Positions 16,891-29,467 of a stretch of 64,000 nt of DNA are shown piece after piece. The notes beneath the pieces are model-generated. The model saw only the letters and a program-made list of their open reading frames with translations. It ran no database searches and was not told the origin of the DNA. The stretch comes from Verrucomicrobiota bacterium (GTDB taxonomy: Bacteria > Verrucomicrobiota > Verrucomicrobiia > Limisphaerales > AAA164-E04), in the NCBI GenBank assembly GCA_047947115.1, contig CP170459.1:3072001-3136000 (forward strand), given 5' to 3'. The translations under genes and the position numbers were made by a program. Positions within the stretch are counted from its first letter, which is position 1; every line of letters starts with the position of its first letter.

Positions 16891-17169
16891 GCGGATCGAG
16901 CAGCCATCTACCCTGGATGGACGCAGGACAAAAAAATAGATTCCTAACAACGGAGGGGCAAGCTCCGTCTTGAACCCACTTCAATCCTTGAGGCATAAGA
17001 ACCGCTGAAGAGACACCATGGAAACCCTAAAACATCACAAATACCTATACCTTCCAAACAAGCAATGTGCCGTGTCTTGGGAACCTTCGCGATAAAAGTT
17101 AGTGAAGCAGCCCTTTCCTCCACCAACTTCCAAGTCTTTATATGATTTTAAAACCTTCGCGTCCCTGGT

Positions 17170-17553
17170 TTAGGAAAGCCATTTGCGTAGCAGGTGGGCA
17201 AGTTCTTTGCGATTGATTTGCTGGTTGGCAATTTGAATCATTGCTTCGTGGAATTGCAACGTGATGTCTACAGATGTGTCTATACCATTTAGTTTCAGAA
17301 AAGTTAAACCTGCTGCGACGGCCGTTCTTTTATTCCCATCGAGGAAAGCTTGAGCTTGGGCAATATGGAAACAATAGGACGAGGCAATATCAAAAAGGTC
17401 TCCATTTTCGTAAAAATAGACTTGCAGTGATTGTGCGACAGCGCTTTAAAGTGCTCCTTCATCCCGAATGCCATCAGTGCCGCCAAAAAGGTCCAAGCCC
17501 TTTCTGTGAAAGAGAATTATTTGATCCAGTGTCAGAAACAATGGCGAACTCAT
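17170..17553 (-). pseudogene. doc: Doc/Fic family toxin interrupted by a nonsense codon
   Basis: Hand translation: MSSPLFLTLDQIILFHRKGLDLFGGTDGIRDEGAL*SAVAQ...HIAQAQAFLDGNKRTAVAAGLTFLKLNG... The TAA is at 17446-17448 (codon 36). The gene is missing from the ORF track. Confidence 0.88.
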
Positions 17554-17817: not shown

Positions 17818-18336
17818 TTATTTATTTGTTGTTTTCCAGCGGGCGAGGGCTTTTTGCATGGAAGGGAAGGCGAGATCGGATTCGGATACCAGCCATGGAT
17901 CGAGCCAGTGGTATCCGGCGACTTCGGTTTGGTCCGGCTTGATCCGTGTGTCCTCGCAGGTTGCGGTGTAAAAGAAATCCAGAACAGGGTAGGTGATGTT
18001 CTTGTAGTTGTATTGGTTTGGAAAACAGGCAAGGTATTGAATGTTGCTTACGGTGAGGCCCACCTCTTCCCTGATTTCCCGTTCCAGCGCATCCTCTGCG
18101 ATTTCACCATTATCGATGAATCCACCCACAACTGCCAGTTTGCCCTTGGCGGGTTCTTTGGCACGTTCAATGAAGAGCATTTGGCCTTTCGTATTCAGAA
18201 TGAGTCCCGCCGCCGCGATGGTTGGATTGAAATAGTAGGTGTATTCGCAGACTTCACACTCGAAAGGGATCTTATCCTCTGGCGTTTTTGGGTGCCCGCA
18301 TTGGGGGCAATGCTTGAATGTGAGGTTTGGCTTCAT
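17818..18336 (-). CDS. NUDIX hydrolase with N-terminal zinc ribbon
   Basis: CPQCG...CEVC and Nudix box GGFIDNGEIAEDALEREIREEVG. Start placed at MKPNL. Confidence 0.9.
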   Translation of the reverse strand: MKPNLTFKHCPQCGHPKTPEDKIPFECEVCEYTYYFNPTIAAAGLILNTKGQMLFIERAKEPAKGKLAVVGGFIDNGEIAEDALEREIREEVGLTVSNIQYLACFPNQYNYKNITYPVLDFFYTATCEDTRIKPDQTEVAGYHWLDPWLVSESDLAFPSMQKALARWKTTNK

Positions 18337-18447
18337 GCTCGTGCGAACCTTCCTCAATGGGGAGGGGACTGGCAAGGGCGAAGTTGGAATTGGAAAACAT
18401 TGCCATTGATTTTGAATTTGGATCTTGCTTAGGTCGTCGTTTCTCAT

Positions 18448-20097
18448 ATGAGAAGTTTCAAGGCCATCCTGTTTCTTTTGCTGGGTGTGGTGCTGATTGT
18501 CGGCGCCATCCTCACTCCGGCGTATCTGCGCGCCGTTGATCGTGGCGTGTTGGAAACAGCCGGGGGTGAACCCGAGTTGGTCAGCGAGGCTTTTTCTTTG
18601 TTGAGTTTGGAAAAACCAGGTGTTGCCGAGTTGCTCTACCGCGCTGCGGTTGTCTCTCAATTGGCCGATTTGCCGAAAGTGGAAACGGCTCTTGGGAATG
18701 CTCGCGGTGAACAGGTCGCGGCCTTTCAACAAGGTGATACCGATCCTTTGATCCAAAACTGGATCCAGCTTCACCGCTTGCAGGGAACAAACGTGGTTTC
18801 TTGGTTTGTGTCCAGTGGGTTTCGTGGTTCTGTCGTGGAACATCTGGAGCAATCCAATCGCCCTGGCGTCCGTGAATTGATGCACAATCGATCCCTTCAG
18901 GCACTGGCGTTGTTTTTCCCGGTTTCAAGTGCTGGAGGGCAGGCTTTTGATTCGGCTATTTTGATGACAGGCCTGCTGTATCAAGAGGATCATCTGAATG
19001 CTTCATTTAGAAAAGAATTGGAAACCCTGGCTGCTGAAGCCAATCGGGGATTGGATACCCGTCCTTTGGAGTCGGTTTATCTGGATCTATTGTCGCTGTC
19101 CAAGCGGCTCAATTGGGGGCAGTTAACCGCCTTTATTCAAAAAGTGGACTCAGCTGCCACGCTTAGAACCCTGGTCCATCATGCTTCGCGGTCCGATGAG
19201 ATGCTGGCCACCGTCTTTTCCGGTGTTTGGTTTGCGGAATCAGGTTCTCAGGTGGCGACTTACCTGCGTCGCTATGCGGAGTCCGGTTCGAAGGACCTGC
19301 AAACTGCCGTTGGTTTCGGGCAAGGTTCGGTGCGGTATCTCATGGCGCGTCAGGAGCCGGTATACGTGAGTTCGATGCGTGAGAGTCTCAGAAGTTTAGG
19401 ACTGTTTCAGCCAGTTGCCCATGCGCTGACGGGTATGACGTTTCGATTGCCCATGATCGGGCTTTTAACCAAGTACCTGTTGTTTCTCTTCGGTAGTTTC
19501 TTTGTGTTTCGTTTGATTTATATGCTGAAACCTGGTCCCGATAAGGTGGAAGCTTCACTTCAGGTGGAGGGGATCGGTATTTTACGGCAGCAGATCATGG
19601 CCTTGGTGGCCTTGATCTTCCTGATCGCGTTTGGCGAACCTTTTCTTGCGCAGGATTCCAAAAAGATGGAAAATCCGATCAATTGGAGATTTCCCGTGGT
19701 CGAATCCGCTGTAACGGAGAAAATTGATAAAATTATGGATACAAAAATCACGCAAATTACCATTCTGGCACTGGTCGTTTTCTTTCTCGTCCAGGTGAGT
19801 ATTTATGCCTTGTGTCTGGTCAAGCTCAAGGAGATCAAAAAGCAGGAGGCAAAGAGCCGGCTCAAGCTCAGATTGCTCGACAACGAAGACAACATGTTCG
19901 ATGCCGGACTTTACGTAGGTTTGGGTGGTACCGTTCTGTCGCTGGTGATGCTGGCCTTGGGGATGGTGAATCCCGGTTTGATGTCCGCTTATGCATCGAC
20001 CTTGTTCGGGATCATCTTTGTTTCCGTGCTGAAGATCTTTCACGTGCGTCCCTATCGGCGCAAATTGATTGTTGAAAACGAGATGGAGTCCGCATGA
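18448..20097 (+). CDS. Membrane protein with C-terminal MotA/TolQ/ExbB-like helices
   Basis: N-terminal TM, ~300-aa soluble domain, then about 5 TM. The last two read YVGLGGTVLSL and AYASTLFG. Confidence 0.65.
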   Translation: MRSFKAILFLLLGVVLIVGAILTPAYLRAVDRGVLETAGGEPELVSEAFSLLSLEKPGVAELLYRAAVVSQLADLPKVETALGNARGEQVAAFQQGDTDPLIQNWIQLHRLQGTNVVSWFVSSGFRGSVVEHLEQSNRPGVRELMHNRSLQALALFFPVSSAGGQAFDSAILMTGLLYQEDHLNASFRKELETLAAEANRGLDTRPLESVYLDLLSLSKRLNWGQLTAFIQKVDSAATLRTLVHHASRSDEMLATVFSGVWFAESGSQVATYLRRYAESGSKDLQTAVGFGQGSVRYLMARQEPVYVSSMRESLRSLGLFQPVAHALTGMTFRLPMIGLLTKYLLFLFGSFFVFRLIYMLKPGPDKVEASLQVEGIGILRQQIMALVALIFLIAFGEPFLAQDSKKMENPINWRFPVVESAVTEKIDKIMDTKITQITILALVVFFLVQVSIYALCLVKLKEIKKQEAKSRLKLRLLDNEDNMFDAGLYVGLGGTVLSLVMLALGMVNPGLMSAYASTLFGIIFVSVLKIFHVRPYRRKLIVENEMESA

Positions 20098-21668
20098 ATC
20101 GACCCTTGCTTATCATTATCTGCGACTTTTTGCTGATCAGCCTGCTCTCGTTGGCGCGGTTTGATCAACAACCGCCCATTGAATCCGAGCAGCCCGAGAT
20201 GACTGAGGCGGAGGAAGCACAGGGGGCGCAGGACATGATGGAGGTACTGCAACTGGCCTTGGAGCAGGAACGTCAGTCGAAAGAGGATCTGGCGCGTGAG
20301 TTGCAGGATATGCAGGACAATCTGCAGAACAAGGAAACCGCACTTCAGGAAAAGGACACTCGGATCGAGGGCATTCAGGAAAACCTGGAAGACGTCGAGC
20401 AACGTGCCGCTCAGTTACAGCGGGAACGGGAGATGTTGCAGCGTCAGTATGACGACACCCAGAAGAATGTGGCGTTTCTGCAGGAGCAATACGTCAATGT
20501 GAAACAGGAAGCCAGGCAGCTTCAGGAGGATTTGACCACGACTTCCGTAACGGCGACCGATTCCAGGGCGCGTCTGGAAACCATTGAATCCGAACTTCAG
20601 GTGCGGCGTCAGGAAGCCCAGCGCATGCAGGATAAGATGGATGAGCTGGAAAAGGAGCGTCAGGAAGCGGAAGAACAAAAATTTCAATTGGCGTTGGAGT
20701 TGAAGCAATCTCAGACCACCGAGATCATCATTCGCGAGCAATTTGATGCCGCCAAAGATGAGATCAAGACCGCCCGGGCCGATGTGGAATATTCTCGTGA
20801 TCAGGTGGATCTGGCTCGTAAGGAAGTGGATCTTGCCAGGGACGAGGTCATGATTGTGCGTCAGGAGAAGGAGCGTATTCAAGAACACGCCGAAGAATTG
20901 GCTGAAGGAGTCGATCAATTGGCGCAGAAATCGGAAGCCATTCGTCAGGACATCAAGGATAACACCCCTCTGGCCGCAAACACCATTTACAATGATTTCG
21001 TGGAGAATCGCATTCGCACGCGATTTTTCGCCGCGCGCAGCGGACTCTTTGGTCAGACCATTGACAAGGAATCTGAAACCAACAGTGTTTTGGTGTCCGA
21101 CGGGACCAATGTCTACGCTCTCTATCACGTGGAAGGCACTCCTTTTCAATTGTGGCAAGCCGAATCGGATTGGGAGCAACTGACGGGAGTGGTGAATCGT
21201 GGGCAGAAGGCTTACAGCATTGCTTTGATGTCCTTCATCAAAGCTGATCCGCGGTTGCTGGTTGTACCGGTGGGAGCGCAGCAGGCAGAGACCTTGGGTG
21301 CCAAGATTTACACCTTGGCGGCTGATCCATTCAAATTCCAGGAAGCGGTCCTGGTCGGGGCGCAGGAGGGTTACTACGGAGAAGCGGAATTCAAGCTGGA
21401 CCCGGCCAATCCCAATTATGTCAAAATGGAAAAGAGGGCCTTTCGCAAACTTGTTGGCAAATTTTCCCCGTCCAAAGGGGATCTGGTCTTCAGTAAGACG
21501 GGTGAGCTGTTGGGGATGATGGTGAACAATGACTACTGTGCAGTGTTGAGTTCCATCGAAACCACACAGAAATTTCGTTTTGGCATGAGCGTCCTTTCGG
21601 AAGGCACCGGACGGATCATGGCCCGGCAGGCTGTGTCTGTGAGTGCGCTACCCTTGCATTTTCAATAA
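20094..21668 (+). CDS. Single-TM protein: MotB/ExbD-like Asp helix, long coiled coil, degenerate trypsin-like C-terminal domain
   Basis: MNRPLLIIICDFLLISLLSL (Asp11 inside the TM); E/Q/L heptad region at about aa 45-288; ALYHV and SPSKGDLVFSKTGELLGM; ATGA overlap with the upstream gene. Confidence 0.6.
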   Translation: MNRPLLIIICDFLLISLLSLARFDQQPPIESEQPEMTEAEEAQGAQDMMEVLQLALEQERQSKEDLARELQDMQDNLQNKETALQEKDTRIEGIQENLEDVEQRAAQLQREREMLQRQYDDTQKNVAFLQEQYVNVKQEARQLQEDLTTTSVTATDSRARLETIESELQVRRQEAQRMQDKMDELEKERQEAEEQKFQLALELKQSQTTEIIIREQFDAAKDEIKTARADVEYSRDQVDLARKEVDLARDEVMIVRQEKERIQEHAEELAEGVDQLAQKSEAIRQDIKDNTPLAANTIYNDFVENRIRTRFFAARSGLFGQTIDKESETNSVLVSDGTNVYALYHVEGTPFQLWQAESDWEQLTGVVNRGQKAYSIALMSFIKADPRLLVVPVGAQQAETLGAKIYTLAADPFKFQEAVLVGAQEGYYGEAEFKLDPANPNYVKMEKRAFRKLVGKFSPSKGDLVFSKTGELLGMMVNNDYCAVLSSIETTQKFRFGMSVLSEGTGRIMARQAVSVSALPLHFQ

Positions 21669-21745
21669 CATTTCCACGGAGAATTTTCCGCATCCTGATG
21701 AGATGTCTTGATCTTCTCGTCTAATGCGTGAAGGGTTCCTGTGTG

Positions 21746-23203
21746 ATGGATCTCCAAGCATATCTTCTGCCTGGGTGGCAAATCTTTCTGATTTTCCTTG
21801 GTTTGCTCCTGGCTGGGCTGACCTCTTCCCACGCGGTGATGTACAAGCGGGATGCCCGGTCTGCCCTGCTTTGGGTGGCATTCATCTGGTTTCTTCCCAT
21901 TGCCGGTTCCCTGCTTTATGGCGTTCTGGGTGTGAATCGTGTCCGACGTCGCGCCTTGATTCTCCGCGGGGACATGGAACAATTCACTTCATGCCCGGCG
22001 GTGACTCCGGGGGATCCTGAAAACCTTCAATCGGCTTTTGGAGAAGAACTCGATCAATGGAGACCGCACTTTCATGCGCTCAGGCAAATCACCTCGCGAC
22101 CGCTACTGCCAGGTAATTCCATGGACGTTCTTGTCAATGGTGAAGAGGCCTATCCGGCCATGGTGCATGCCATAGATCAAGCACAAGAAACAGTTGGATT
22201 CGCTTCCTACATTTTTGATCATTGTCCGGCGGGAATCGAATTTGTGGAAGCATTTCGCCGAGCCAAAAACAGGGGAGTGGAGGTGCGTGTTCTGGTGGAT
22301 TCAACAGGATCCTTGTATTCCTGGCCGACCATATTCAAAGCGCTGCATGAGGCCGCGATACCTTGTGCCAAATTTCTTTCGTTCAGCGCCATCAAGCGTC
22401 CCTTGACTTTGAACCTGCATAATCACCGCAAGTTGTTGGTTGTTGACGGCAGGATAGGATTCACGGGTGGGATGAATATTCGCCAGGGGCATATGACCAA
22501 AAGTGCGGAAAAGAACCAGGTGCAGGATCTTCAGTTCAAATTCACCGGCCCGGTGGTGGCGCACATGCAAGAAGCCTTCGTGAATGATTGGTATTTCAGC
22601 TCCGATGAAAGATTGAGTGAAGATTTGTGGTTTCCTTCTTTGGGGCAAACAGGTGAGGTTTACGCGCGTGGCATTACGGATGGACCAGATGAAGATCTGG
22701 ATAAACTTCTCTGGACACTTTTGAGCGCCTGCCACACGGCACGTAAATCAATACACATCATGACACCTTACTTTTTGCCCGACGCTTCCCTTATTTCGGC
22801 GCTGTGTCTGGCTGCCATGCGCGGGGTGGAGGTTCATATATTGCTGCCAGCCAAGAACAACCTGCCGTTTGTTCAATGGGCCACACATGCGATGCTTTGG
22901 CAGGTGTTGGTGAAAGGTTGCCGTGTATGGGAATCTCCTCCTCCCTTCGAACATGGTAAGCTCATGCTCGTGGATGGCCACTGGGCTCTGGTTGGTTCCT
23001 CCAACTGGGATGCGCGTAGTTTGCGCTTAAATTTCGAGTTCAACGTGGAATGCTATCACCCTGGAACCGTGCGTCATCTCGAGCGTATCCTGGACTCGAA
23101 GATCGCGCAGTCAAAGGAAGTCACCTTGGAGGATATGGACGCCAGATCTGTTCCAGTCAGGATCCGTGATGGTGTGATGCGATTGGCGACTCCTTACCTC
23201 TGA
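21746..23203 (+). CDS. cls: Cardiolipin synthase (PLD family)
   Basis: N-terminal TMs and two HKD motifs (HRKLLVVD, HGKLMLVD); SSNWDARSLRLNFE. Confidence 0.93.
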   Translation: MDLQAYLLPGWQIFLIFLGLLLAGLTSSHAVMYKRDARSALLWVAFIWFLPIAGSLLYGVLGVNRVRRRALILRGDMEQFTSCPAVTPGDPENLQSAFGEELDQWRPHFHALRQITSRPLLPGNSMDVLVNGEEAYPAMVHAIDQAQETVGFASYIFDHCPAGIEFVEAFRRAKNRGVEVRVLVDSTGSLYSWPTIFKALHEAAIPCAKFLSFSAIKRPLTLNLHNHRKLLVVDGRIGFTGGMNIRQGHMTKSAEKNQVQDLQFKFTGPVVAHMQEAFVNDWYFSSDERLSEDLWFPSLGQTGEVYARGITDGPDEDLDKLLWTLLSACHTARKSIHIMTPYFLPDASLISALCLAAMRGVEVHILLPAKNNLPFVQWATHAMLWQVLVKGCRVWESPPPFEHGKLMLVDGHWALVGSSNWDARSLRLNFEFNVECYHPGTVRHLERILDSKIAQSKEVTLEDMDARSVPVRIRDGVMRLATPYL

Positions 23204-23413: not shown

Positions 23414-24223
23414 CTAACCGATCAAGCGCAGCGCCGATTGTGGAATGGCGTTGGCTTGCGCGAGCATGGCTGTTCCGGATTGAACCAGGATGTTTTGACT
23501 TGCAAAATTCGCGCTTTCCTCGGCAACGTCCACATCCTTGATGCGGCTGTTTGCTGCGGAAATGTTGTCTTTCAACACGGCCAGCTGTGAACTGGTACTT
23601 TCCAGACGCGAGATGTTTGCTCCCACAGATGCACGATCCGTGGCCAGCTGATTGATGGCAGTTTTCACCGCCGTCAGAGCAGACGAAGCCCCGGCGGTTG
23701 TTCCGACCGCCAGTGAATTCAATGCGGTATAACTGCCTCCTGCGGCCAGATCGACGCCTGAAGCAGCAAACTTGGTTCCGTCACTGTCAATGGTCACATT
23801 CAGACCGGAACCATTGAACAAACTGACACCGTTGAAATCTTTTTTTGTGATATCAACGATATAGCTATCCAAGGTCTGGAATTCCTTGTCGTACAAACCG
23901 CGATCCGTATCGGATTTGGTTTCGTCCTGCGCCAGCATGGCCAGCTCACTCATGCGATCCAGCGCCTTGCCGACTTTGTTGAGGAAACCGTCCTGCGTCT
24001 GGGAGAACGAAACGGCGTTTCCGACATTGTCCTTTGCTGCCTGGATGCGGCTGACTTGGGCGTCGAACTTCAGCGATACCGCAGTACCTGCCGCATCGTC
24101 TGCGGGTGAGTTCAGCTTTGACCCTGAAGATAATCGTGCCAGTGATTTCTGCAATGATGTGGTCGATTCGCTGAGAATACGAGAGGCCATTGCAGCCGAT
24201 GGGTTGGTGTTGATGACTACCAT
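23414..24223 (-). CDS. fliC: Flagellin (minimal, 269 aa)
   Basis: MVVINTN...LARLSSGSKLNSPADDAAG; SRIKDVDVAEESANFASQNILVQSGTAMLAQAN; Shine-Dalgarno AAGGAG. Confidence 0.96.
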   Translation of the reverse strand: MVVINTNPSAAMASRILSESTTSLQKSLARLSSGSKLNSPADDAAGTAVSLKFDAQVSRIQAAKDNVGNAVSFSQTQDGFLNKVGKALDRMSELAMLAQDETKSDTDRGLYDKEFQTLDSYIVDITKKDFNGVSLFNGSGLNVTIDSDGTKFAASGVDLAAGGSYTALNSLAVGTTAGASSALTAVKTAINQLATDRASVGANISRLESTSSQLAVLKDNISAANSRIKDVDVAEESANFASQNILVQSGTAMLAQANAIPQSALRLIG

Positions 24224-24252
24224 TTTTAACTCCTTCCTATGAGTTATCGTTT

Positions 24253-24272
24253 GCGCGACATCCATGCCGCGC
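24253..24272 (-). promoter_or_regulatory. CsrA-type binding hairpin in flagellin 5' UTR
   Basis: GCGCGGCA-UGGA-UGUCGCGC stem with GGA in the loop; further GGA motifs overlap the Shine-Dalgarno. Confidence 0.72.
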
Positions 24273-26339: not shown

Positions 26340-26545
26340 GGTTCCAACATAGGGCGTCCACGGTCCATCAGCAAGTCTTTAGGAAATATACGCTCAGGAT
26401 TTTTCTTATCACTTTGCTACTTGACCGGATCGGAGAATGGATGCATGGATTTCTGAACTGAATCGCCCGGACCTTATGCTGAAGAAGACACTTAATGTCT
26501 ATTTTCTCCAGCGGTTGTGGCGTCATCTCAAGAATGCCAAAGGAT

Positions 26546-29467
26546 ATGAAAAAACTGTTTCGCATTGGTTGCTGTCTGTTGCTGGTATTGACAGCTTTCA
26601 CACACGACGTTCAGTCACAGGAGGGTGGTGGTGCGTCTTCGCCTTCCGGGAAACCGGCGCCCAAACCGGAGTTTCCACCTTACAACGAGGTGTTTGAAGG
26701 TTATGAGCAGGTGATCTCCACGATTGACAAGAGTCCGACCTTGTTCGGTTTGTTCGTCAATCGGAAAGACAATCAGATCCTTGCTGCATTCCCCAAAAAG
26801 TATCAGTCCAAGAAATTTTTCATTGCCCTGACCGTTGCCAGTGGTGAGTTGTATGCAGGATTGCAACAAGCGGACATGTATGTTTACTGGAAACAGATTG
26901 GTAAACGCATGGTGCTGATTCAACCCAATGTGGAAGTGCGGAGTACTGGTGACAGTGAATCCCGTTCTTCGGTTGAACGTTTGTTCACGGATCGTGTGCT
27001 GGCAGACATCCCTATTGTCACCATGCATCCCCAATGGGGGCCTGTTGTGGATCTGGATGGGTTTCTCTTGGGCGAAGGGGCCAGCTTTTTTGGTTCCAGC
27101 GCAAGGGGATTGAAACGTCAATTGGCTGTTATTAAAAACGCCAAGGCTTTTCCGGAGAACATCGAAATCGCGTTCGAGGTGCCTGTCTCAAGTGGCTTGC
27201 TGAAAACTTTCCACTACTCCATAAGCGAAATCAAACCCAATCCATCTTATCGCCCCCGCAAGGCTGATGAACGCGTTGGTTATTTCACTACCGGATACGA
27301 TGACCTGGGCAAATTCCAACAGGACGATGTCCGGACCCGATTCATCAACCGCTGGCACTTGGAAAAAGCAGCCCCAGAACTGAAAACGAGCCCGGTTAAA
27401 AATCCCATCGTGTTCTACGTCGAACATACCACACCGATTCGTTACCGCCGCTGGGTGCGCGAAGGAGTCATGATGTGGAACAAGGCATTTGAGGAAATCG
27501 GGTTGTTGAACGCCATTGAGGTGCGCTATCAGGATCAAAGCACAAACGCTCACATGGAATATGATCCGGAAGACGTCCGTTACAATTTTATCCGTTGGCT
27601 GAACAACAACGTCGGCACCGCCATCGGTCCCAGCAGAGCCAATCCGATTACCGGTGAGATTTTGGATGCGGATATCATTTTGACCGATGGATGGATCCGG
27701 CATTTCTGGCGTAAATTCAACGAAGAGTTGCCGAAGTTGGCGATGGAAGGATATTCTCCTGAGACCCTGGCATGGCTGCAAAAGCATCCCGAATGGGATC
27801 CTCGCGTGCGTCTGGCTCATCCTTCGAATCGTGAAACCGTTGCCGAAGAAATAGCCCATCACTCACATCAGTCCTACGGAGGACATCCTTTGGCTCACAG
27901 CGATCCTTCCATGATTGGAGATGATGAATTCGATGGTTTGGTGGGGCGCACCAGCCAGGTGAATGGATTCTGTCAGGCCGCCGATTTTCGTGCGCTGGAT
28001 ATGGCCGTGATGCGCTTTGCATTCGAGCTGATGTCTCAGAGTGAAAACGAAACAGGCGAAGGTGCTGAAGGAACTGATCCTGCGGATGACAAAAAAGACT
28101 CTGAAGAGCCCAAGAAGGAGGAAGATCTTCTGGACGGAATTCCGGATTGGTTCGTCGGGCCATTGATTGCTGATCTTGTGGCCCACGAAGTCGGTCACAC
28201 ATTGGGATTGCGCCACAATTTCAAGGCTTCCAGCATTTACAGTCTGGAAGAAATCAACAGCAGTGAAGTTAAAGGTAAAAAACCTTTTGCCGGTTCCGTG
28301 ATGGATTATCTGCCGGTGAACATGAACATCGAAGGATTCGGTGAAGAGCAGGGCGACTATGGCATGATCGAAGTGGGACCTTACGACCTGTGGGCCATTG
28401 AATACGGATATTCCATTGTCAAGAAGGACGACGAGTTGAAAAAAGTGTTGGCGCGTGTGAATGATCCTTTGCTCGCTTATGCTACGGACGAAGATACCTA
28501 CGGACCGGATCCATATGCCCGACGCTATGACTTCGCGCAGGATCCAATCAGCTACGCCAAAAGCCAGATGAAACTGGCCAATGATCATCGCAAGAACATC
28601 CTCGATAAATTCGTGAAAGATGGAGACAGCTGGGCCAAGGCACGTTATGGCTACGGGCTGACCTTGAGCATTCAGATGCGTTCTCTGAGCATGATGGCCA
28701 ACTGGCTGGGTGGGGCACAAATCAATCGGGCCAAGAAAGGGGATCCTGATTCCACGGCTCCTATCCAGGTTGTGGATGCTTCCAAACAGCGCGAAGCTCT
28801 GCGTTTTGTCATGAAAAACGCGTTTTACGACAAAGCCTTTGGTCTCACTCCGGAATTGCTACGCCACATGTCCATGGATAAATGGATCGACGATTTCAGC
28901 TCGGCCATTCAGGACAGTACCTGGCCAATTCATGATCGGATCATGGGTATACAATCCTCGGCACTCACCATGCTGATGAATCCCACCACCATGGGACGCG
29001 TTTACGACAACGAATTCCTGACACCGGAGGACGAAGACATGATCACCCTGCCGGAGATTCTCGGTGAAATCCGTGAAGCCATCTGGACCGAACTGGAAGA
29101 TCCCGACGAGGGCAAATTCACCGCGCGTCGTCCGATGATCTCCAGTCTGCGCCGTAATCTCCAGCGTGAACATCTGGAGCGCCTCATCGACCTCAGCATG
29201 GGACAGAGCTTCTCCAGTGTCTCCTATAAACCCATCTCGAACCTGGCAACAGCCCAACTGAGAGATCTGAAGAAGCAGATCGACCTCGTGTTGAGCGACA
29301 AGGAATTGAATGCGGATCCATACAGTGCGGCACACTTGTCCGAGGCATCCGTTCGTATTGAAAAAGCCCTGGACGCTGGCTTCATTTACAATACATCGGA
29401 CATTGGCGGCGGTGGAGCTTCCGTTCGCCTGATCCTTGGAGATGAACTCAAACGATCTGCGAATTAG
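26546..29467 (+). CDS. Secreted zinc-dependent metalloprotease (DUF5117/DUF4953, EcxA-like)
   Basis: Signal peptide, ADERVGYF, INRWHLEK, HEVGHTLGLRHNF metzincin motif and SVMDY Met-turn. Confidence 0.9.
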   Translation: MKKLFRIGCCLLLVLTAFTHDVQSQEGGGASSPSGKPAPKPEFPPYNEVFEGYEQVISTIDKSPTLFGLFVNRKDNQILAAFPKKYQSKKFFIALTVASGELYAGLQQADMYVYWKQIGKRMVLIQPNVEVRSTGDSESRSSVERLFTDRVLADIPIVTMHPQWGPVVDLDGFLLGEGASFFGSSARGLKRQLAVIKNAKAFPENIEIAFEVPVSSGLLKTFHYSISEIKPNPSYRPRKADERVGYFTTGYDDLGKFQQDDVRTRFINRWHLEKAAPELKTSPVKNPIVFYVEHTTPIRYRRWVREGVMMWNKAFEEIGLLNAIEVRYQDQSTNAHMEYDPEDVRYNFIRWLNNNVGTAIGPSRANPITGEILDADIILTDGWIRHFWRKFNEELPKLAMEGYSPETLAWLQKHPEWDPRVRLAHPSNRETVAEEIAHHSHQSYGGHPLAHSDPSMIGDDEFDGLVGRTSQVNGFCQAADFRALDMAVMRFAFELMSQSENETGEGAEGTDPADDKKDSEEPKKEEDLLDGIPDWFVGPLIADLVAHEVGHTLGLRHNFKASSIYSLEEINSSEVKGKKPFAGSVMDYLPVNMNIEGFGEEQGDYGMIEVGPYDLWAIEYGYSIVKKDDELKKVLARVNDPLLAYATDEDTYGPDPYARRYDFAQDPISYAKSQMKLANDHRKNILDKFVKDGDSWAKARYGYGLTLSIQMRSLSMMANWLGGAQINRAKKGDPDSTAPIQVVDASKQREALRFVMKNAFYDKAFGLTPELLRHMSMDKWIDDFSSAIQDSTWPIHDRIMGIQSSALTMLMNPTTMGRVYDNEFLTPEDEDMITLPEILGEIREAIWTELEDPDEGKFTARRPMISSLRRNLQREHLERLIDLSMGQSFSSVSYKPISNLATAQLRDLKKQIDLVLSDKELNADPYSAAHLSEASVRIEKALDAGFIYNTSDIGGGGASVRLILGDELKRSAN

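Follow-up and report, generated by a model that had tools for sequence, protein, structure and literature searches.

What could a pair of overlapping membrane-protein genes be doing when no annotated family claims either of them, and could they form an ion-driven motor? This question is raised by a locus in a 64,000-nucleotide stretch of a Verrucomicrobiota genome (GenBank assembly GCA_047947115.1, contig CP170459.1, positions 3,072,001 to 3,136,000), hereafter the window, whose coordinates are used throughout. Gene A (18448–20097) encodes a 549-residue membrane protein with six transmembrane (TM) segments, the putative pentamer or "A" subunit, while gene B (20094–21668) encodes a 524-residue protein with a single TM segment, the putative axle or "B" subunit. 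Both open reading frames, and all the parts of them described below, lie on the plus strand. The ATGA overlap reported in the initial annotation, inside which gene B starts, is confirmed by the coordinates of the two frames (20094–20097). Our analysis establishes that A and B are a real, conserved, and unannotated system. It is likely that the pair is an ion motor of some kind, with B acting either as a moving arm or as an anchor; kinship with the known motor families is not proven.

A Conserved and Unannotated Gene Pair

Scans of A against Pfam and NCBIfam yielded no family above cut-off, hydrophobic noise at most, and the same scans of B returned only generic coiled-coil matches. Sequence searches of the PDB gave no match for A and coiled coils only for B. 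In the open-access full-text literature no paper describing the pair was found, with the reservation that such proteins may be listed in the supplements of PMC12505986 and PMC12204202.

Distribution was evaluated in 301 Verrucomicrobiota genomes, including the source genome. A profile of gene A matched in 113 of them, the source genome counted; 44 of the 100 genomes of the same class were positive, as were 68 of the 200 from other classes. The B profile matched in 112. The A locus is single in each genome, two double matches being pieces of one frame. It is nearly complete in some families (23/26 and 46/48) and gave no match in the searched members of others (0/23 and 0/15). Relatives that carry a name belong to Verrucomicrobiota, among them Limisphaerales, Pedosphaera, and Opitutales; one Atlas cluster bears the label Lentisphaerota.

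The two genes travel together. B was detected within 2 kb downstream of A in 102 of the 112 other A-positive genomes, and inspection of the ten exceptions placed B directly behind A in nine (two of them cut by contig ends) and found no A core in the remaining one. The gene order and linkage that had been proposed for the pair are therefore borne out, since, among the other genomes that possess an A core, B comes after it in all 111. B without A occurred in seven genomes, six of which gave weak matches confined to the coiled-coil part and one a B fragment at a contig end. Pairwise identities of A and B are correlated across 41 loci (rho 0.76), as shared descent would produce, and this correlation carries no weight as evidence. 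The widest gap between A and B that was read, 427 bases, accommodates a 119-residue open reading frame (locus L032, 3150–3581). Assembled contigs from 4 of 20 listed RNA runs cross the A/B junction of the source genome, which proves neither transcription nor a single transcript, and a promoter scan found one site versus 3.6 expected, that is, at or below chance.

Putative Ion-Site Residues and the Question of Motor Kinship

The pair displays features of the motor type, namely a Thr/Ser motif pair in the last two TM helices of A, a TM helix of B with an invariant Asp, and adjacency with A first. The first motif of A, GLGGT (19918–19932; G491 and T495), aligns with GLLGT of ExbB/TolQ and has the spacing of PomA G154/T158. 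The second, AYASTLFG (19987–20010; A514, S517, T518, and G521), aligns with ALxTTxxG of ExbB/TolQ and has the spacing of PomA A182/T185/T186. All motifs quoted in the initial annotation were located at the residues it gave, including GLGGTV with T495, AYASTLFG with T518, and, in B, D11, NSVLVSDG at 330, ALYHV with H345, and DPRLLVV with D385.

Across 211 A core sequences, G491 is kept in 210, A514 in 205, S517 in 200, and G521 in all 211. The expected conservation of T495 holds (208 sequences, with Ser in the other three), whereas that of T518 stands only in part, since 189 keep Thr but 20 carry Asn and the neighboring S517 is better kept. T495 and T518 each lie on the most conserved side of their respective TM helices, the final two of A. 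In a subset of sequences among loci L015–L043 (9 of 29 close sequences), Asn replaces T518 and Ala replaces V496, a possible change in ion handling.

PomA coordinates Na+ through G154, T158, A182, T185, and T186, beside D24 of PomB, as described in PMC10374538. Both ion-site spacings of PomA recur in A, which lacks the third of the glycines in the PomA zipper. Because the same three threonines stand in the ExbB/TolQ alignment, this Thr/Ser site leaves the choice of ion unfixed.

The counterpart in B is an N-terminal TM helix, delimited by hydropathy at residues 5–22 (20106–20159), with Asp11 (20124–20126) as its lone Asp. As had been anticipated, this residue is conserved, being invariant in 80 of 80 B sequences gathered through the C-terminal domain; a further set gave 61 of 61, although it had been selected with a pattern that demands Asp.

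The combination found in A is also rare. A pattern for both A motifs in a hydrophobic context matched 4 of the 16,217 open frames of the genome (837 of which have at least two TM windows), and these four are gene A and three of the five ordinary PF01618 genes that the genome holds besides A. Since the pattern was composed after both A and ExbB had been inspected, it shows specificity and not independent discovery.

Family and fold tests left kinship with the motor families unproven. Gene A does not pass the gathering cut-off of PF01618. Profile comparison with ExbB/TolQ gives a probability of 14%, a weak match that nevertheless exceeds those of 40 shuffles, and in structure A matches ZorA and generic helix bundles equally well. 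When 49 A cores were compared with PF01618, one reached E 0.003, and one short form scored 14.4 bits against a cut-off of 22.9. Full-length A gave no Foldseek match at E ≤ 0.001, and a profile comparison of the B TM helix with those of ExbD/TolR produced no similarity signal. In the top 50 rows of the VIA search, motor proteins were represented by ZorA chains alone, with no ExbB/TolQ chain among the matches listed, and the three-helix core of A aligned with the type II ZorA core (PDB 8VVI) across 98 of 99 residues.

These results bear on a rather improbable alternative, in which the pair would be a sensor or scaffold and not a motor: the head of B would bind a ligand or unfolded proteins and transmit a signal or tension through its coiled coil to A, with the Asp and Thr residues serving packing or signaling. 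In its favor, A matched no family in sequence and gave no clear fold match; it has family-specific invariants (Q449, D485, Y489, and Y515) with no counterpart in the ExbB/TolQ alignment; and one lineage has a Ser/Thr kinase gene downstream (10 of 33 loci). Such an arrangement sits poorly with an invariant lone TM Asp next door to two correctly spaced Thr/Ser motifs, a motor signature that is rare in the genome, and with the lack of a signaling domain in A.

Anatomy of Gene A

Hydropathy resolves six hydrophobic segments in A, and an AlphaFold2 model (mean pLDDT 88.3) arranges the protein as an N-terminal TM helix, an all-helical domain spanning approximately residues 23–334 (18514–19449), two TM helices, and a core. 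This conserved core (residues 436–549; 19753–20094), composed of a TM helix, a basic helix, and a TM hairpin, is common to long and short forms of the protein. The distribution of charges suggests that the basic helix and the C-terminus are cytoplasmic and the large domain periplasmic. The C-terminus extends only 16 residues beyond the last TM helix.

In other classes A is much smaller, with just 170–190 residues or so and four TM helices in 17 of 20 loci read; the extra domain of about 310 residues and two extra TM helices are gone, and this domain is therefore dispensable. No named relatives of the domain, which the fold searches barely probed, were found. A resemblance to a proteobacterial hypothetical family was unsupported, given that its 19 matches were all proteins of 345–557 residues and the sole organism-named one came from a Verrucomicrobia bacterium. 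Some Opitutales-labelled relatives of A (P0106, P0110, and similar proteins of 760–790 residues) have an insertion of about 200 residues in the soluble domain.

The Predicted Coiled-Coil Arm and Trypsin-Fold Head of Gene B

Beyond its TM helix, B is free of proline from residue 35 to residue 291. The arm proper (residues 46–291; 20229–20966), which gave only generic coiled-coil matches, would measure about 37 nm if it formed a single unbroken helix at 0.15 nm per residue. The initial annotation had described a long heptad stretch; a single register runs from approximately residue 46 to 185 and shifts thereafter. Among relatives, the arm varies from about 190 to 390 proline-free residues.

The arm ends in a head (residues 292–524; 20967–21665) with a predicted trypsin/HtrA fold. 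The earlier proposal of a trypsin-like tip without the GxSGG serine agrees with the fold search and the alignments, and the proposed absence of OmpA or ExbD periplasmic domains is matched by the lack of any such family match in B. The segment SPSKGDLVFSKTGELLGM was found in its place at residues 458–475. In the close group of 80 sequences, H345 is kept in 80, D385 in 79, and S460 in 69. At the nucleophile position, in register with GNSGGP of HtrA, B has K461, and the close group has Arg in 70 of 80 and Ser in 3. Heads from other classes (20 sequences) have the His in 3 and mostly Glu at 460, in an alignment of 13–17% identity whose His column may be misplaced. A Pfam trypsin search of 100 B sequences gave no match, and no active S1 serine-protease triad with GxSGG is present in the B head.

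To judge from these residues, the head is probably non-catalytic. The opposite reading, that it is an active serine protease whose nucleophile has shifted to S460 in the close group, so that the pair would be a motor-coupled periplasmic protease, appears very unlikely. The near-invariant His and Asp, the frequent S460, and the HtrA-like fold speak for it, but the serine position itself is occupied by Lys or Arg, S460 lies one place earlier, and the heads of other classes mostly keep neither the His nor a Ser at 460, with the same caution about the His column.

Proposed Mechanism and Biological Role

If the pair is a motor, two B helices would sit inside a ring of five A subunits, and ions, either H+ or Na+, would bind at Asp11 and the ring formed by T495, S517, and T518. 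Ion binding may then turn A relative to B. The B dimer would carry its predicted trypsin-fold binding head across the periplasm, and the arm would twist or pull whichever cell-wall or outer-membrane component the head grips. Work would most likely exit through the B arm because the minimal A is almost devoid of an output domain, whether cytoplasmic or periplasmic, and no TonB- or TolA-like gene travels with the pair. We regard this 5:2 ion motor, with the B dimer as a direct-drive periplasmic arm, as evenly poised between right and wrong.

The same 5:2 motor could instead use B as a fixed anchor in the manner of MotB and ZorB, with the head, rather than an OmpA domain, bound to cell-wall glycan and the turning A ring driving a partner encoded elsewhere or acting through its own periplasmic domain. 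This arrangement seems unlikely. Short forms of A lack the periplasmic domain and expose little outside the membrane, no transducer gene is co-localized, and proline-free arms of about 190–390 residues look over-long for a simple wall anchor. We infer an arm over an anchor on three grounds: the minimal A lacks an output domain, no transducer gene accompanies the pair, and the arm is long enough to bridge a periplasm.

The role of the pair is likely to be envelope housekeeping rather than defense. An anti-phage system akin to Zorya or Kiwa is highly improbable, even though the ZorA chains mentioned above were the sole motor proteins among the top VIA rows and the KwaA model of PADLOC matches 7 of 49 A cores (best E 4e-7). 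The locus is single per genome and nearly complete in some families, no nuclease or helicase gene recurs nearby, plasmid and phage collections gave no match to the pair, and the ZorA and ZorB models do not match it. Membership in Zorya was discarded, as the pair has no ZorA tail, ZorB OmpA domain, or effector genes ZorC/D/E. Membership in Kiwa, judged by KwaA similarity and a KwaB partner, was likewise discarded, the KwaA of the one genome concerned scoring 14 against the A core, within shuffle noise and with no alignment to it. This two-gene Kiwa-like locus (L110, 605–2019, genome G139) lies beside a gene that we take to be restriction-modification specificity-subunit-like. It is the only one matched by the KwaA model among 151 genomes, and it is separate from and unrelated to A (Kiwa preprint, 10.1101/2023.02.26.530102).

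A broader proposal is that A and B represent an undescribed 5:2 motor family of several Verrucomicrobiota classes, kept at a single locus and diverged beyond the reach of current profiles, in which the axle is a 30–60 nm coiled-coil shaft with a repurposed HtrA-fold clamp that would deliver energy to the cell wall or outer membrane without TonB, TolA, or a Gld ring, possibly using Na+ in view of its PomA-type T/S/T site. We hold this proposal to be just short of evenly balanced. Each of the known 5:2 motors powers a major envelope process, such as flagellar rotation, nutrient import, outer-membrane constriction, gliding and secretion, or phage defense. A lineage-wide member that has escaped Pfam, NCBIfam, and PADLOC would signal that the abundant Verrucomicrobiota of soil, marine, and gut-associated habitats run an energy-dependent envelope process not yet recognized. 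At about 180 residues, the short A would rank with the most compact motor cores, and rotation would be more readily tested on a long axle whose head can be bound than on ExbBD or TolQR. Should the motor reading fail, a conserved, unannotated envelope complex with a pseudo-protease would still be left.

Neighboring Genes and Genomic Context

A comparison of 33 loci, each with a few kb of surrounding sequence, revealed no third gene that spans classes. Neighbors are limited to lineages, with a PLD-family gene at 4 loci, a NUDIX gene at 4, and a kinase-sulfatase-modifying-factor gene at 10. In the window, a cardiolipin-synthase-like PLD gene (21728–23203, plus strand) directly follows B and is also the neighbor at three other close-relative loci. 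Divergent from gene A lies a NUDIX hydrolase with a zinc-ribbon-like N-terminus (17818–18339, minus strand), common to L006–L008. The kinase gene, a Ser/Thr kinase fused to an FGE-sulfatase domain, stands beside the pair in one lineage (L049, 6457–9048, and nine other loci; one member was scanned). Also near the pair is a 990-residue zincin metalloprotease of the DUF4953/DUF5117 type (26495–29467, plus strand). In the region 16950–17450, contigs from the RNA runs skip 223–232 bases at about 17178–17441 and have many loose ends near 16952–16990, which suggests an intergenic repeat or a strain-variable element.

A short flagellin gene lies 1.7 kb downstream of the pair (23414–24265, minus strand), at least part of it covered by contigs from the RNA runs. 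A second copy occurs at G000:C1:1672001–1672408; the genome, a single contig, is 95.8% complete, and its two flagellins are orphans with no FliG, FlhA, or MotB-plug match. A divergent flagellar stator might be invoked here, given the nearby flagellin and the absence of a MotB plug match above cut-off in the source genome, but we consider it extremely improbable. The source genome has no FliG or FlhA match, FliG was detected in only 11 of 151 genomes and in none of the 24 from the family where A reaches 46/48, and flagellin is not a recurrent neighbor of the pair. As for the idea of a Tol-Pal replacement, TolB_N is found in only 8 of 151 genomes, both with and without the pair.

Comparison with Known Systems

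The head of B resembles HtrA/Deg (S1C) proteases and the S1C domain of RsgI9 (PDB 7SJY) in its predicted trypsin-type fold and, within the close group, in the retention of the His and Asp positions. It differs from them in having Arg/Lys or a small or hydrophobic residue as the nucleophile, in lacking a PDZ domain, and in being borne on a coiled coil. With MotAB/PomAB, the pair shares the four-TM topology of the short A and the G/T and A/S/T spacing of the PomA site, whereas A has no torque-generating cytoplasmic domain, B has neither an OmpA domain nor a MotB plug match, and the pair occurs in genomes without FliG.

Similarity to ExbB-ExbD/TolQ-TolR (PF01618 and PF02472) covers the A-then-B order, the GLxGT and AxxxTxxG motifs in register, and a single-TM B with a lone Asp on its N-terminal side. 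Unlike those systems, the pair falls below the PF01618 cut-off and shows no ExbD domain and no profile similarity in the B TM helix; its TM hairpin is shorter, no TonB or TolA gene adjoins it, and it possesses a long coiled coil with a trypsin-fold head. TPH-vWA motors, which are also reported from Verrucomicrobia, combine a TolQ-like gene with a non-ExbD partner whose Asp helix is predicted to lie in the pentamer, with force applied directly, as described in PMC12204202. The direct-drive logic proposed for A and B is the same. Nevertheless, the A/B head has a trypsin and not a vWA fold, a single B gene takes the place of a heterologous pair, A has diverged too far to be caught by PF01618, and the arm is a long coiled coil.

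Compared with GldLM/PorLM, no sequence relation was seen, the arm is a coiled coil of about 28–59 nm if unbroken, no GldK/N-like genes lie near the pair, and the ion-site residues of A are MotA/ExbB-like. The likeness lies in the use of a B-type subunit as a long periplasmic shaft, for which GldM, a dimeric shaft of four domains and 18 nm proposed to deliver torque (PMC9389320), provides a precedent. Finally, the pair resembles ZorAB, especially the core of type II ZorA (8VVI; PMC11890865), in the Ser/Thr ring around an Asp of the B subunit, an arrangement that is putative for A and B.

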